From assembly GCA_965223415.1 (NCBI GenBank), contig OZ245002.1:2720001-2784000 (forward strand): a DNA stretch of 64,000 nt, given 5' to 3'. The translations under genes were made by a program, and so were the position numbers. Shown here in pieces: positions 53,683 to 61,988 of this stretch. The DNA is from Myxococcota bacterium. Lineage in GTDB: Bacteria; Myxococcota_A; UBA9160; UBA6930. Position 1 is the first letter of the stretch. Every line of letters begins with the position of its first letter. The notes under the pieces were generated by a model. The model made no database searches and was not told the origin of the DNA. It saw only the letters and a list, made by a program, of their open reading frames with translations.

Positions 53683-53811
53683 GCCTAACAAGCGGCTGCA
53701 GCTGACGGCTCCAAGCACCCTTCAAACGGCCATGGTAGCCTGGGGTTGTTCCTTGGCCGGTTCAGCGGGCGTCGGGGCCGTCGCCGCAGCTGAGCCGCCG
53801 GTCCGTTAGGC
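53683..53811 (+). other. Integron attC site 1 (129 bp, intact)
   Basis: R'' GCCTAAC ... R' GTTAGGC; inner arms GCGGCTGCAGCTG / CAGCTGAGCCGC. Confidence 0.9.
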
Positions 53812-53818
53812 GGCTGGA

Positions 53819-55299: not shown

Positions 55300-56100
55300 T
55301 CAACGCTGGGCGCTTTGCCCCGCGGCCTGCTCGAGCTCGCGGAGCCGGTAGCTCCGCCCCGAGATGTTGAGCACCTGGCTGTGGTGGAGGAGGCGATCGA
55401 GGATGGCGGTGGCCAGCACCTCGTCGCCCGCCAGCACCTCGGGCCAGTCGGCGATGCCCTTGTTCGTGGTGATCAGGATCGAGCCCCTCCCATAGCGGTA
55501 GGAGACGAGCCGGAAGAAGAGGCTCGCCTCCTGGCGCGTCATGGGCTCGAAGCCGACCTCGTCGATGACGAGGAGCGCCACGTTCATGTGCTTGCGCCGC
55601 CGCAGCCGTTGCGGGCTGATCTCGGCGTCGCGCTTGAGGGCCGCCAGCAGGTCCTCGAGGCGATGGAAGGCCACGGAGAAGCCGTTCTCCACGGCCCGCA
55701 CCCCCAGGGCCACCGCCAGGTGGGTCTTGCCCACTCCCGGCGGACCCTGGATCAGCAGACTCTCCTTGGCCCGGATCCACGCGCAGGTGCCCAGCGTCTC
55801 GATCCGGCTCCGCTCCACACTCGGCTGGAAGGCGAAGTCGAAGTTGCCGAGGGTCTGCCCCGTGGGAAGGCCCGAGAGACGGAGCGAGGTCTTCATCCTC
55901 CGCTCCTCGCGGTGCTGCAGCTCGGCCTCGAGCAGCAGGTCGAGGAAGCGGTGGGGCACGAGGTCGTCCTTGGTCGCTCGGGCCAGCTCCTCGCCGATGT
56001 GCTCGGCCGCGTGATGGAGGCCGAGGCGCACGAGCCGCTCGCGGGTCGGGTCGAGATCCACCTTGCCGCCCTTCTTGGGCACCGGGTTTCCCGCCGTCAT
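55300..56100 (-). CDS. istB: IS21 helper ATPase
   Basis: FDFAFQP, GPPGVGKTHL, LVIDEVG, AILDRLLHH. Confidence 0.94.
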   Translation of the reverse strand: MTAGNPVPKKGGKVDLDPTRERLVRLGLHHAAEHIGEELARATKDDLVPHRFLDLLLEAELQHREERRMKTSLRLSGLPTGQTLGNFDFAFQPSVERSRIETLGTCAWIRAKESLLIQGPPGVGKTHLAVALGVRAVENGFSVAFHRLEDLLAALKRDAEISPQRLRRRKHMNVALLVIDEVGFEPMTRQEASLFFRLVSYRYGRGSILITTNKGIADWPEVLAGDEVLATAILDRLLHHSQVLNISGRSYRLRELEQAAGQSAQR

Positions 56101-57383
56101 CGCGCCACCTCCGCCAGATCGGCATAGAGGTCGATCGGCCGCTGCTCCGGCTCCATCGCCCACAGCTCCTGGAGGCGTCGACCCATGCGCCCGAGCGGTA
56201 CGGGCGCCTCCACCCCCTCCGTGCTCGGCCCCTCGTAGTGGCTCGGGTCCAGCAGCAGGCGGCTTCGCGTGTGGCGCGGGTGCGCGGCCACCACCGAGCC
56301 CTCGGCCCAGACCTGCACCTGCCGGGCGCAGCCGCGCACCTCGACGCTCTGCTCGACGAAGCGGAAGGGGACGCTGTAGGTACGCCCCTCGAAGCGCACC
56401 GTGGCGTCGCGCCCGACACGTCGCATCACGGCCAGGTCGAAGGGCTCGGGAAGCCGCTCGGGCAGGGCCCCGAGATGGGGCTTCTCCGCCTCCCACGCCT
56501 GGAAGACCGTCGTGCCCGTCGCCGGGCACTGCCGCCGGTGGCTCGAGCGCGCCACCTGGCCGTCCGTCCACGCTTGCAGCGACTCCAGGCTCTCGTGCTC
56601 CCGCCGACGCGGATCGAAGCCCCGCCGGTGCCCCAGGATCCGACGCTCCACCTTCCCCTTCTCCTGCGGCTGGCGGGGACGGGTGGCGTCCACGTGGAAG
56701 CGAAGGGCCCCGGCATAGCTCGCGTAAGCCGGGTTCACCGTCCCCCATGGCCCCGCCCCCTTCGCCACCGCTGTCTTCACGTTGTCGACCCGCAGCACCG
56801 CCGGCACCCCGCCCAGCCGCTCGAAGGCCCGGTTGTGCACGTCCAGCCACGCCAGCGTGTCCGCCCGCTCCGACCACACCACCGCTTCTCGCCGCGAGTG
56901 CGAGAGCACCAGGTGGAAGGCATGCAGGTCCACCTCCTGGCCCCCGATCCGCACGCCCGGAAACTCGCCCCAGTCCACCTGACCCTGCGCCCCGGGCGGT
57001 GTCTCCACCCGACGCCGGCTCCGCACCTTCGGTCTCGGGAACCGGGCCCGCACGTACCGCTGCACGCTCTTGGAGCTCCCCGTGTACCCGTGCTCCTCCA
57101 CCAGGAACTCGTGAAGCTCCTGCAGGTTCACGCCACGGCCTCCCGAGCTCGCCTCCAGCCACTCCGCGATCACCTCGTGGACCGCCTCGGCCAGGAAGGG
57201 CTTCCCGCTCCGGCCGTCTCGCGCCCCCTCCGCCAGCCGCTTCAGCCGGTAGCGCACCGCGCTCTCCCGGATCCCCAGCTGGCGGGCGATCTCCCGGTTC
57301 GAGCACCCCCGCTCGTGCAGCACTTCGATCGTCATCACTTCCTCCTGCCTCAGTCGCCGCTGCCCCACGCCCCCCTCCCTCAC
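56097..57383 (-). CDS. istA: IS21 transposase
   Basis: HTH, ETPPGAQGQVDWG, VDNVKTAV, EKGKVER, YSVP. Confidence 0.94.
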   Translation of the reverse strand: MREGGVGQRRLRQEEVMTIEVLHERGCSNREIARQLGIRESAVRYRLKRLAEGARDGRSGKPFLAEAVHEVIAEWLEASSGGRGVNLQELHEFLVEEHGYTGSSKSVQRYVRARFPRPKVRSRRRVETPPGAQGQVDWGEFPGVRIGGQEVDLHAFHLVLSHSRREAVVWSERADTLAWLDVHNRAFERLGGVPAVLRVDNVKTAVAKGAGPWGTVNPAYASYAGALRFHVDATRPRQPQEKGKVERRILGHRRGFDPRRREHESLESLQAWTDGQVARSSHRRQCPATGTTVFQAWEAEKPHLGALPERLPEPFDLAVMRRVGRDATVRFEGRTYSVPFRFVEQSVEVRGCARQVQVWAEGSVVAAHPRHTRSRLLLDPSHYEGPSTEGVEAPVPLGRMGRRLQELWAMEPEQRPIDLYADLAEVAR

Positions 57384-57466
57384 GGGGAACGTGCCGCGCA
57401 GCGGCTCAACAGGAGGTGCGCAAATCTACGTGTCCTCTTAGCCCTCGAATATCACGTCCTGCGACA

Positions 57467-57921
57467 CCCCGGAGCTGGTTCACGGCCTGTTGGCGCATCT
57501 GGACGAGGCGGTGGCGGACCCGAAGGAGCTTCCTCCTCCCGTACTCCTCGTCGCTCGGGTAGTAGGTCGTTGCCACCCGATCCAGATCACCGAGCCAGAG
57601 CCGGCGTGCAATCTCGGCTGCATCTCGCCGGTCCGTCTTCTTGCCGAGCTTCTTCAGGTCGAGCTTGCGCGGATCACAGACCAGAACGTCGAGCTGCGCC
57701 TCTCGGCAGGCGTTGACGAACCACCGGTTGAGGCCCAACGCCTCGACGGCTACGCGGCAATGGGGTCCGAAGAACTTCAGCCGCTCCACGACCCCGAGGC
57801 CCTGTTCAAGGCTCTCGGAGCGGATCCTCTCCTCGGCGATCTTCTCACCCCGCGCATCCAGCACGCAGATCTGGATCACGGTGCGATGCAAGTCGATCCC
57901 AGCGAAGTACTCTGTCGTCAT
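57467..57921 (-). pseudogene. IS110-family transposase, N-terminal DEDD fragment
   Basis: AGIDLH, VAVEA, KTDRRDA. Confidence 0.88.
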
Positions 57922-57999
57922 GGTCAGTCTCCTTGGGGAGTGTTTGTTGGAACACAGCCAAGGTGGCTGTTCTCCAAGGAGCTGACCTCCCTATACCCT

Positions 58000-58103
58000 C
58001 CGGGCCCCGCTCGTCCCAATCGAGGCATGATACCCTGGGGTTCCACTCAGGTGGCTCGGCGAGCCTCGGGGCCGGCCCGGCAGCTGAGCCGCCAGTCCGT
58101 TAG
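58000..58103 (+). other. attC site 2, right part (R' hit by the IS110 element)
   Basis: ...CAGCTGAGCCGCCAGTCCGTTAG; removing both IS110 elements gives 129 bp, the same length as attC1. Confidence 0.88.
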
Positions 58104-58118
58104 ATACTCCCTTCGTCG

Positions 58119-59114
58119 TCAACCCTTCGTGGCGAAGAATTTCTCGCCAAGGAAGTCCTGGTCGTGGCGGAGCATGCCGTAGATGGCGTGGAGCAGCTTC
58201 CGCATGACGGCGACGAGTGCTTGCATCTTGGTTTTGCCCTTGGAGAGCAGCTTCTCGTAGAAGGCCTTCACGTTCGGTTCCCAGCGTGCAGCGACCATCG
58301 CAGGAAGAAAGAGTGCGCGGCGAAGGTGGGCGTTGCCGGTCTTGCTGATGCGAGCTGGCTTGTGCACAGAGGTGCCCGATTGAAACTGTCGGGGGTCGAG
58401 GCCCGCATGCGCGACCCATTGCCGGGTCGTCATGTCCTTGGGCAAGGTGCCTAGCTCGGCGAGCAACTGGATGCCGGCTGCGTCGGCGATACCCTTGATC
58501 GATGTGATGTGGCCGAAGTCTCTGGCGAGCTCGGGGCTCTGCTCGATCACCTTCAACGCTTGCTTGCGCAGCCGATCGATTCGCCCCTCCAGGAGCTCGA
58601 TCAGTTCGCGGATGTCTTGCTTCACGAACTCACTGAGCTCCTCGCTCTGGTCGTTGGCATGGAGCCGGTTCTTCTCCTGCGTCACGGTCTTGCTCAGAGC
58701 CTCCACGCGGCGGGAGAGGGCCCGTACCTCCAGAATTCGGGGGTCCGGCGGAGTCCAGGCGGAAAACTCCATGCGCATTCCGAACTCGAGAATCGTTTCC
58801 GCATCGAGCGCATCCGTCTTGGAGCGTTGAAGCGATGCCTTGGCGAACGCGGCAATGGCCCGCGGGTTCGCCACCATCACCTGGGACGCCTTCGCACGGT
58901 GAAGCGCGAACGCGAGGTCGAGGCCGTACACCCCGGTCGATTCCAGGACGACGCGCGCCGTCGCATTCCCCTTCGTGGCCCACCGAATCAGCCTCTGGTG
59001 GCCCTTGGGATCGTTCGCAAAGACCAGCCCGCCCTCGCGAGTTCCGTTCCGGTCGATGGCGACGACGAGCTCCTTCGCCCCGACGTCCACGCCCACGTAA
59101 TGACACTTCTTCAA
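58119..59114 (-). CDS. IS110-family bridge recombinase
   Basis: GVDVG, VLESTG, KTDALDA (DEDD), AHAGLDP..FQSGTS, ISKTGN..LR; GGAGG RBS and TTG start. Confidence 0.93.
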   Translation of the reverse strand: MKKCHYVGVDVGAKELVVAIDRNGTREGGLVFANDPKGHQRLIRWATKGNATARVVLESTGVYGLDLAFALHRAKASQVMVANPRAIAAFAKASLQRSKTDALDAETILEFGMRMEFSAWTPPDPRILEVRALSRRVEALSKTVTQEKNRLHANDQSEELSEFVKQDIRELIELLEGRIDRLRKQALKVIEQSPELARDFGHITSIKGIADAAGIQLLAELGTLPKDMTTRQWVAHAGLDPRQFQSGTSVHKPARISKTGNAHLRRALFLPAMVAARWEPNVKAFYEKLLSKGKTKMQALVAVMRKLLHAIYGMLRHDQDFLGEKFFATKG

Positions 59115-59149
59115 GGTCTCTCCTCCCCGTGATAAGCTGGGACCCGGGT

Positions 59150-59340
59150 CTCCCGACCCTGCACATTCACCTACGGACCTTGTAGACGCAGGCTCTCGGG
59201 CCTCGGATACTCCACGGCATGGGTGACGAGGGCGGGAGGCCCATCTAACGGACAAGCTCTCTGGCTTCAGGCAGCGACGGCCTTTCCCGGGAACCCATCT
59301 CGGAGTCTCACTCAGGCCCGAAGAGCCTGCTCAGAGGTAC
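59150..59340 (-). ncRNA. Predicted bridge RNA (ends approximate)
   Basis: Guides matching target and donor flanks at 59269-59277, 59245-59253, 59206-59213 and 59179-59184; each pair separated by a small hairpin. Confidence 0.82.
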
Positions 59341-59343
59341 AAG

Positions 59344-59461
59344 GCGGCGCCCTGCGAACGGCGAGACTCGACCACTTGATCGCGCTTGTCTGTCTTGTCG
59401 CAGTCAGCTTTGGCTGCGTGAACCCAAGCTCCTCATCACGAATTCGCATCTTCGTGAGCGA
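59344..59461 (+). pseudogene. Gene cassette 3 remnant (lipoprotein-like N-terminus) truncated by IS21
   Basis: LIALVCLVAVSFGC lipobox-like stretch; frame runs into the IS end. Confidence 0.5.
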
Positions 59462-59541
59462 CCCTCGGTGGACGTCTGAAAACCGGCCAAAGGTGGACGT
59501 CTCAAAGGCGGCCAAAGGGCCGCGCCCAGGACAGAGGGGTT

Positions 59542-60303
59542 CTACCGCGCCGGAGCCTCCTTCGGCAAGGCCGTGGTCTTCTTGGTGCGCCAGCTGCGGG
59601 GTCCGCACTTGAGCAGGTGGCCGTGGTGGAGGAGGCGGTCGAGCATGGCGGTGACGGCTGCCGTGTCGCCGAGGAGCCGGCCCCAGTCGTCGACGGGTCG
59701 GTTCGAGGTGACGAGGGTGCTGGTGCGCTCGTAGCGGCGCATGATGAGCTCGAGCAGGTCCTCGGCGGCCGTGGTGGGGAGCTTGCGCATGCCGAGGTCG
59801 TCAAGGATGAGCAGCGGCACGCTCGCCATCTCGGCCAGGTACTCCTTGCGGGTGCCGTCGAGGGTCGCATCAGCGAGTTCCTCGAGGAGGACGTGGACCT
59901 CGCGGTAGGCGACGCGATGGCCCTGGTGGATGACGGCGAGGCCGATCGCCTGGGCGAGATGGCTCTTGCCCGTGCCCGGCGGGCCGAGGAAGACAGCGTC
60001 CTCGGCTTGCTCGAGGAAGCGGCCCGTGGCGAGCTCGAAGACCAGGGCGCGATCGATCTTCGTATTGAAGCGGAAGTCGAAGCCGTTGAGGGTCCGGTTG
60101 GCGTCGCGGAAGCGGGCCTGCTTGATGCGCCGGGCCAGCAGTCGGTCCTGCCGGCGCTCGAGCTCGTCCTGGACGAGCGCCGAGAGCAGGTCGATGGCCG
60201 CCCACTCGCCCTTCTGGGCTTCGAGGAGCCGCATCTCCAGATGCTCGGCCATGCCCGAGAGCCGGAGCTTGCGCAGTGCGGGATCGAGTTCAGTCAGATT
60301 CAC
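59542..60303 (-). CDS. istB: IS21 helper ATPase
   Basis: FDFRFN, GPPGTGKSHL, LILDDLG, AMLDRLLHH. Confidence 0.93.
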   Translation of the reverse strand: MNLTELDPALRKLRLSGMAEHLEMRLLEAQKGEWAAIDLLSALVQDELERRQDRLLARRIKQARFRDANRTLNGFDFRFNTKIDRALVFELATGRFLEQAEDAVFLGPPGTGKSHLAQAIGLAVIHQGHRVAYREVHVLLEELADATLDGTRKEYLAEMASVPLLILDDLGMRKLPTTAAEDLLELIMRRYERTSTLVTSNRPVDDWGRLLGDTAAVTAMLDRLLHHGHLLKCGPRSWRTKKTTALPKEAPAR

Positions 60304-61879
60304 GAGAGGTCTCCTCGGTGCGGCGATCGATGAGATCGCGGTAGTGGGTGAGCTGGCGGATGAGCGGGTCCACCTGCTTGAGCGAGAGCGGCAGCTCGGG
60401 CTGACGCTCCAGGTAGCGCTTGACGAACGCGTAGGTGGGCAGCTCGAGGGCCAGGGCGGTGGCGCAGGCATCGTCGACGCGAGGGATGCCGTGGCGCTTG
60501 CACAGGGAGAGCACGCCCAGGATGCGACGCACCCCGGGCTCGCCGTCCAGGCGATGGATCGCCTCACACACCTCGCCCACGTGGACGCCGGCGCGCCGGG
60601 CCCGCGCGAGCAGCTGGAGGGTCGTGGCCGGCGTCCGCTTCGGGCGGTCCTCCTCCCGCATCCTGCGGCGCCCCCGCCTCTGGCGGACGTGCTCGCGCAG
60701 CAGCTCCCCCGTCTGCAGATCGAGCATCCGCACCCGCAGCCCGTCCCATTGGACGGCCACCCGCCGCCCCAGCCAGCCCGGCGGCGCGTGGTAGTAGGCC
60801 CCCTCCACCTCGATGGCCCCGTCGAGGTGCACCGTGCGCTCGCCGTGCTGGTAGTAGCGGAAGGGCTCGATGGGAAGCCCGAGCAGGTGCGGCTTCTCCT
60901 CTTCGTACATCGCCGCCACCTGGCGCTTGGTCGTGCCGTGGATGCGGGTGTCGGCCCATCGGCGCTCCCAGCGGTCGAGGTAGGCCTGGGCCTGCTCGAG
61001 CGACTCGAAGCGCATCCCGCGGACCTTCTGCTGCGCGTGGCGCACCCCGGACTCGACCTTCCCCTTGCGATCGGGGTGGCGCACCCGGCACGGAAGCGCC
61101 GTCACGCCGTAGTGGGCGAGCACATCGCGGTAGAGGGGGTTGAGCGCGGGGTCGTAGACGTCGGGCTTGAGAACGCCCTCCTTGAGGTTGTCGAGGACGA
61201 CGGTGCGCGGTGCACCGCCCAGCCGGCGGAAGGCCTTCTCGTGCAGCTCCGACCAGACCTGGCTGCTCGACTTCCACACGAGCAGCCGAACGCACTTGCG
61301 GCTGTAGCCCAGGGTGAAGACGAACAGCCTCGTGCGCCGGTACTTCCCCGACCCGGGATGCCGCACCATCGGCCCGTCGCCGTAGTCGACCTGGCCCTCT
61401 TCTCCCGGTGCCGTCTCGATCACCGGGTGCGCCTCGCGCGGCGCCGCGGCTCGCTGCTTCGCCACGAAGCGCTTCACACTCGCATAGCTGAAGGCGAAGC
61501 CGTGGTCATCGACTAGGTCCTGCCAGATCGCCATCGCCGTCCGGCCCTGGCGCACGCCCGCCTCGATCCACTCGCGGTAGGGCTCGCAGGCGCTGGCCTG
61601 GGGGCTCCGGCCCGGCATCGGCGGCCAGGCCGGATCGGTGGACGCCTCTTTGGCCGCTTTTGCCGGGGCCTTCGAGTCGGTGGACGCCTCTATGGCCGGG
61701 TTTGGGGCCCCGTGCCCCCAGCGACCAGGAGATCGCACCGCGATCCCCGCGGCCCGGAGGTAACGGCTCGCCGTCTCCCGGCGCACGCCCGTCGCCTCCT
61801 CGATCCGCCGAAGCGACCAGCCGAGGCGGCCAAGTGCCAGAATCTGCTCGCGTTTCTCGTTGCCCAGAAGGTTCGCCAT
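60290..61879 (-). CDS. istA: IS21 transposase
   Basis: ETAPGEEGQVDYG, LDNLKEGV, RKGKVESGV, RIHGTT. Confidence 0.93.
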   Translation of the reverse strand: MANLLGNEKREQILALGRLGWSLRRIEEATGVRRETASRYLRAAGIAVRSPGRWGHGAPNPAIEASTDSKAPAKAAKEASTDPAWPPMPGRSPQASACEPYREWIEAGVRQGRTAMAIWQDLVDDHGFAFSYASVKRFVAKQRAAAPREAHPVIETAPGEEGQVDYGDGPMVRHPGSGKYRRTRLFVFTLGYSRKCVRLLVWKSSSQVWSELHEKAFRRLGGAPRTVVLDNLKEGVLKPDVYDPALNPLYRDVLAHYGVTALPCRVRHPDRKGKVESGVRHAQQKVRGMRFESLEQAQAYLDRWERRWADTRIHGTTKRQVAAMYEEEKPHLLGLPIEPFRYYQHGERTVHLDGAIEVEGAYYHAPPGWLGRRVAVQWDGLRVRMLDLQTGELLREHVRQRRGRRRMREEDRPKRTPATTLQLLARARRAGVHVGEVCEAIHRLDGEPGVRRILGVLSLCKRHGIPRVDDACATALALELPTYAFVKRYLERQPELPLSLKQVDPLIRQLTHYRDLIDRRTEETSRESD

Positions 61880-61988
61880 GGCGGCGGGGGATCGCAGGTC
61901 CCTCGCCGTCGTCAACGTCCTGGGCGTCAGCCCCTATGGCCGCTTTTCAGACGTCCTTCTATGGCCGGTTTTGGGTGTCCACCGAGGG

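Follow-up and report, generated by a model that had tools for sequence, protein, structure and literature searches.

The stretch at 59177-59253, which lies in a window of 64 kb (the whole stretch of DNA that was analysed), very probably belongs to the bridge RNA of an active, IS621-like element of the IS110 family, whose handshake guides would act as they do in IS621. The limits of this span coincide with the first RTG letter (59253) and with the final letter of the DBL handshake (59177). Its main interest is that the wild-type IS621 handshake configuration has been kept letter for letter in a distant, GC-rich relative, in agreement with the regulatory role in the life cycle of IS110 elements that publications attribute to handshake guides. 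This is a known mechanism correctly read, and the element itself is a further IS110 member, which opens no new question. Mildly new are the failure of the second DBL letter to track the target and the mismatched cores of a neighbouring subclade. As a natural element with six copies, a 7-nt RTG and known empty sites, it represents a testable system.

An IS110-family element and its bridge RNA

The recombinase encoded by this element (Table 1) combines, as expected in the IS110 group, a DEDD RuvC-like domain and a Tnp domain with its catalytic serine, and both Pfam matches are above cut-off (PF01548, 3.8e-26; PF02371, 1.5e-20). When compared with the PDB, it is best matched by ISCro4 (9t56, 4.2e-49, residues 3-320), the likeness to this closest solved structure being at the protein level, and then by IS621 (8wt6, 2e-46). 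Residues D10, E58, D101, D104 and S246 align with the catalytic D11, E60, D102, D105 and S241 of IS621, the numbering of the latter including an inferred chain offset of +2. The genome holds six copies of the element, the 1238-bp interiors of which show 0 differences, with CT flanking both ends in 6/6. These six identical copies, with CT on both sides in every case, indicate that the element has been recently active.

Table 1. Features of the element, of its bridge RNA and of the surrounding window (positions are those of the window).
Feature	Position	Strand	Details
IS110-family insertion sequence	58102..59343	minus	left core CT 59343-59342 to right core CT 58103-58102; interior 1238 bp; ~1.24 kb
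Left junction	59342..59350	minus	target left arm GCGCCGC + core CT
Bridge RNA core	59152..59283	minus	target-binding loop stems 59283-59279 with 59241-59237; donor-binding loop; outer stem 59236-59229 with 59160-59152
LTG + core-binding CU	59269..59277	minus	UCGCUGC-CU; 5' side of first loop; matches left flanks GCGCCGC-CT with one U:G position
RTG + core-binding AG	59245..59253	minus	GUCCGUU-AG; 3' side of first loop; complementary to CT-AACGGAC (right junction, empty sites)
TBL handshake guide A-U (A59244, U59243)	59243..59244	minus	after RTG AG; would pair with donor T7/A6 (58104/58105); equivalent to IS621 A81/U82
LDG + core-binding CC	59205..59213	minus	GGAGUAU-CC; 5' side of second loop; identical to right-end top strand GGAGTAT-C, 58110-58103
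RDG + core-binding AG	59179..59184	minus	UACA-AG; 3' side of second loop; complementary to CT-TGTA at left end, 59343-59338
DBL handshake guide G-U (G59178, U59177)	59177..59178	minus	after RDG AG; G would pair with target C7 (59344), U would wobble with G6 (59345); equivalent to IS621 G166/U167
Recombinase gene	58119..59114	minus	331 aa, TTG start; DEDD RuvC-like domain + Tnp domain
-35-like TTGACG in right end	58117..58122	minus	13 nt before core
Right junction	58095..58110	minus	donor left arm GGAGTAT, core CT, target right arm AACGGAC
Second, different IS110-family gene fragment	57406-57921	minus	171 aa; only N-terminal DEDD_Tnp_IS110 domain; starts 180 nt after right junction
Second IstB domain (IS21-type)	within 55300-57306		
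Unoccupied target site in window	53801..53817	minus	CCAGCCGC-CT-AACGGAC; locus L009
IstB (IS21-type)	59542-60309	minus	
IstA-like integrase (IS21-type)	60290-61915	minus	

In the orientation of the element, the left junction reads GCGCCGC-CT-TGTACC and the right junction GGAGTAT-CT-AACGGAC. The 'empty target' to which the preliminary description compared the latter (GTCCGTTAG-GC) proved to exist as real DNA, beyond joined flanks, in the form of two unoccupied paralogous sites (L007, and L009 in the window) that read GCCGC-CT-AACGGAC. These empty sites carry a single CT, and the same core dinucleotide is found at both boundaries of the element. At the six insertion sites in this genome, the left flank is CCGC-CT in four, and target positions 6-7 are GC four times, AC once and CT once (position 7 being C five times and T once). 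Contigs of four sequencing runs contained no circle junction and no empty allele at the locus; they break at the ends of the element, and one of them spans a paralogous empty site. Both unoccupied sites lie where a repeated sequence of ~100 nt starts, and this repeat also borders two of the six copies on their right side. It would seem that the element homes into repeats of the genome, just as IS621 does into REP sequences, the target lying within repeated genomic sequence in both cases.

The structure of the bridge RNA was drawn on an alignment (A2) of 35 homologues, upstream of the recombinase gene. It consists of two internal loops, each closed by two stems, plus an outer stem, and this structured RNA with its two loops is situated, as in the IS110 group, in the left end upstream of the gene. 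In the alignment, 94.5% of the cells are paired and 13 of the 27 pairs show changes on both sides; when the partners were slid by 1-3 columns as a control, pairing dropped to 18-53%. An Rfam scan of 57900-59600 returned no family at E <= 1, and folding the left-end sequence by itself was not informative (z -1.61).

All four guides (LTG, RTG, LDG and RDG) can be read against the junctions and the empty sites, in a two-loop layout that is the published one (PMC11208160). Across 38 distinct sites, RTG and RT form Watson-Crick pairs at 184 of 266 positions, versus a mean of 126 in shuffles (0/5000 shuffles reach this value), and positions 10-13 pair in at least 32 of the 38 sites. The assignment of RTG and RDG made in the preliminary description therefore holds, owing to the six copies, the empty sites, the covariation of the stems and the RTG:RT covariation. 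The same description saw in the handshake an independent support for this assignment, with which it is indeed consistent, but to which it adds little because the assignment already rests on these stronger lines of evidence. In many homologues (e.g. L021, L059-L062, L065-L078), RDG is CACA facing a left end that reads CT-TGTA, which corresponds to a conserved C:A mismatch at donor position 13. IS1111-group seekRNA elements, which belong to the same recombinase superfamily and also rely on RNA-guided recognition of target and donor, have their guide RNA after the gene, in the right end, whereas the guide RNA of the present element is before the gene.

The handshake letters here and in IS621

Read on the minus strand, 59253 to 59243 is GTCCGTTAGAT, and the plus strand at 58095-58105 has the same 11 letters, which bears out the reported extension of RTG into an 11-nt identity with the hybrid junction. 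These two are the only sites in the window that match GTCCGTTAGAT with at most one mismatch, for a chance expectation of 0.32, and two sites or more were found in 4/100 shuffles. As for RDG, minus 59184 to 59177 is TACAAGGT and plus 59338-59345 is TACAAGGC, which are identical at 7/8 letters, the eighth giving a G:U wobble. The extension of RDG by one match plus one wobble is thus as had been described, but the wobble is not borne out as a sign of tuning since it comes without covariation (see below). In other words, AU and donor AT make two Watson-Crick pairs, and GU and target GC make one Watson-Crick pair plus one wobble; in the facing that precedes exchange, AU has no Watson-Crick pair with target GC, and GU has only U:A with donor AT. 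At equal base frequencies, the letters AU would occur by chance with a probability of ~1/16, and G plus a wobble-tolerant U with a probability of ~1/8. The four handshake letters by themselves are weak evidence, and they owe their weight to the fact that they occupy the same positions as in IS621 and to the homologues, in which three of the four are conserved or covarying and the fourth (U59177) is neither.

In IS621, each handshake guide is the dinucleotide that follows, on the 3' side, the core-binding part of RTG (81-82) or of RDG (166-167), and the structure shows both guides paired, after top-strand exchange, with positions 6-7 of the non-cognate DNA (PMC11208158), which agrees with what the first reading of this DNA had stated of them. 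According to the same source, recombination is blocked by handshake pairing before exchange and promoted by pairing after exchange, and among IS110 orthologues covariation is seen between 81 and donor position 7, as well as between 166 and target position 7 (PMC11208158, Hiraizumi 2024). In wild-type IS621, where AU and GU are combined with a target GC and a donor AT, exchange raises the number of Watson-Crick pairs from one to three (PMC13626964). This asymmetry is reported to drive insertion and disfavour excision (PMC13626964, Nature 2026), the pattern is described as conserved among IS110 elements (PMC13626964), and mutations in the handshake alter insertion and excision oppositely (PMC11208158, PMC13626964). 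A preprint likewise calls the handshake a bias toward insertion, and proposes that excision can bypass it via donor-loop-only complexes (bioRxiv 10.64898/2026.08.31.748434).

The likeness between the two elements is extensive. The same eight letters are found in the same places (A81/U82 and G166/U167 in the RNA; G6/C7 in tDNA and A6/T7 in dDNA), the recombinases share the same domain pair with all five catalytic residues aligned, both RNAs are encoded in the left end with two internal loops, and the core is CT in both (PMC11208160, PMC11208158). Even the donor arms are nearly alike, GGAGTAT.CT.TGTAC here and ACAGTAT.CT.TGTAT in IS621 (bioRxiv 10.64898/2026.08.31.748434). By contrast, the two proteins are only distantly related (E 2e-46), the RTG of 7 nt is fully matched here whereas that of native IS621 is 4 nt long (preprint, bioRxiv 10.64898/2026.08.31.748434), the target here is GCCGC-CT-AACGGAC, and the present element resides in a GC-rich host genome and is known from its sequence only. 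At the DNA level, a blastn search of E. coli genomes with the left end as query gave no match, and the positional equivalence with IS621 therefore rests on the numbering in these papers and on the shared architecture.

Homologues and the direction of recombination

Homologues were gathered by scanning 401 genomes of the phylum (26 places), and further ones came from genome contigs (3 loci) and from metagenomes (80 loci). Both handshakes were parsed by means of conserved anchor motifs, and the left and right junctions were located from RDG and LDG. The count covers 60 loci with at least 45% identity and a left junction (5 of which are copies from this genome), and 48 with a right junction containing CT; it leaves aside 14 parsed loci without a left junction 90-130 nt upstream, 3 loci below 45% identity, truncated loci and loci lacking an anchor motif. 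Five of these 14 were inspected by eye: L055, L064 and L087 pair at both positions, L018 at the second only and L120 at the first only.

The two handshakes behave differently. On the TBL side, donor positions 6-7 are AT in 48/48 loci, 81 and donor 7 form a Watson-Crick pair (A:T) in 48/48, and 82 and donor 6 (U:A) in 41/48, which with an invariant donor AT represents conservation and not covariation. On the DBL side, 166 and target 7 form a Watson-Crick pair in 51/60 loci (G:C 42, C:G 6, A:T 2 and U:A 1), a wobble in three, and are unpaired in six (A:C 2, A:G 1, C:C 2 and C:T 1). Position 166 switches with the target, since it is C with G (L023/L024, L080, L098/L101/L106), U with A (L075) and A with T (L062, L097), and in 40 unique elements the pair is found in 34/40, versus a mean of 22.3 in shuffles, with 0/20000 shuffles reaching this value. 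Position 167, on the other hand, pairs with target 6 in 29/40 unique elements versus 27.0 in shuffles (P ~0.18); it is U in 44/60 loci whatever the target letter, and in 36/48 its letter is the Watson-Crick partner of donor A6, which it faces before exchange.

The shuffle statistics for these pairs ignore relatedness. On the recombinase tree, there are only four well-supported independent contrasts for 166, in which the target letter changes concordantly in 2.9 on average, discordantly in 0.0 and not at all in 1.1 (median p 0.25), and the target letter does not follow 167. Covariation across homologues, by which the preliminary description proposed to check its reading, is thus seen for 166 with target 7 but not for 167 with target 6, and the TBL pair is conserved only. 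This small homologue set is consistent with the published pattern, where what counts is the first handshake letter on either side, although it cannot alone prove it. The second TBL letter is G in L084, L090, L094 and L101, all four of which have C at target position 6; G82 may there form what would be a pre-exchange pair with target C6, some three independent lineages being involved and chance being possible.

By analogy with IS621, the guides would face their own DNA before exchange and would hardly pair with it, AU being opposite target GC and GU opposite donor AT, with U:A as sole Watson-Crick pair. The recombinase would then cleave both top strands on the 3' side of the CT core and exchange them. 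AU would now find donor AT as its partner and G would find target C, which makes a total of three Watson-Crick pairs and one wobble, and this gain in pairing would pull insertion forward. In the integrated element, the same pairs would already be formed at both junctions, and excision would be disfavoured because exchange in that direction loses pairs. Only the first DBL letter would read the target, while the TBL pair would read the invariant donor end. The earlier proposal that the element is tuned to favour insertion is hence upheld, by homology to IS621, as regards the register, the letters and the expected bias, but not as regards the wobble letter. The G:U wobble at the second DBL position would add nothing to such tuning, because U167 is kept whatever the target, does not covary with it and can pair with donor A6 before exchange.

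Several alternatives to a handshake that acts as in IS621 have to be weighed. The four letters could be part of a conserved RNA scaffold, be complementary only by coincidence to the donor end, which is conserved, and to the target, which is GC-rich, and have no effect on direction in this element. Such a scaffold would readily account for a U167 that is retained with any target letter, and it would leave no trace in the TBL pair, where A81 and donor AT are both invariant and covariation cannot show; moreover, the tree-based test is underpowered, with its four contrasts for 166. This is nevertheless an unlikely explanation, since 166 changes with the target in several lineages, and IS621 mutants at these very positions shift insertion and excision oppositely (PMC11208158, PMC13626964).

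Less likely still is that the extended complementarity lets the RNA recognise the ends of its own integrated element, and promotes excision instead of insertion. The RNA is indeed complementary at 11/11 positions to the right junction in its present genomic form, and excision substrates of IS621 are reported to be bound likewise (PMC13626964), but in IS621 such pre-formed pairing prevents top-strand exchange, and excision rose once the handshake had been re-programmed away from it (PMC13626964). Pure chance would have to account for two further letters after a 9-nt match, and for one letter plus a wobble after a 6-nt match. It is hardly credible, for while a joint probability of ~1/128 at equal base frequencies is not negligible for a single element, IS621 has the same letters in the same places (PMC13626964), the TBL pairs hold in 41-48 of 48 homologue loci and the 166:target-7 pairing is above every one of 20000 shuffles.

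Element ends, a sister subclade and the neighbourhood

The ends of the element contain a candidate circle-junction promoter. A TTGRCN hexamer lies exactly 13 nt before the core in 46/48 homologue right ends, and the left ends carry CTTG followed by a TAxxTx hexamer, which in this element (59338-59333) is TACCTC, a poor -10. Joined ends would place the two hexamers 17 nt apart. A promoter rebuilt across the circle junction has been described for IS110 elements (Durrant 2024, PMC11208160), and the motifs seen here fit this description, with TTGRCN on the right and TAxxTx on the left; scanning the linear element for promoters gave 0 sites. TTGRCN and TAxxTx across the joined ends may represent a junction promoter, as predicted from sequence.

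A subclade comprising L018 (in genome G273), L053, L087, L089 and L092 has AU at the core position of LTG and a handshake that reads AC. In L018 and its relatives, which were dropped from the count, this AC pairs only partly with the flank. The left junction is AT and the right junction CT in the 2/2 loci of this type that are readable at both ends, and paralogous empty sites in G273 (in L132-L135) read AT three times and CT twice, which suggests that a CT-core donor enters AT-core targets. We would tentatively entertain a joint reading, which is possible rather than probable, in which (i) the handshake of the clade is a three-letter device, made of a fixed AU versus donor AT and of a target-reading 166, (ii) U167 is kept as a pre-exchange brake via donor A6 and (iii) the entry of L018-type CT-core donors into AT-core targets reflects a natural tolerance of core heterology at position 8.

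The element sits among a cluster of insertion sequences, of which the surrounding window is full (Table 1). The nearby fragment of a second IS110-family gene was considered as a 'host' element of the target and rejected, as it is a truncated repeat; its similarity to other copies ends at ~57467, where a sequence present in ~20 copies begins.
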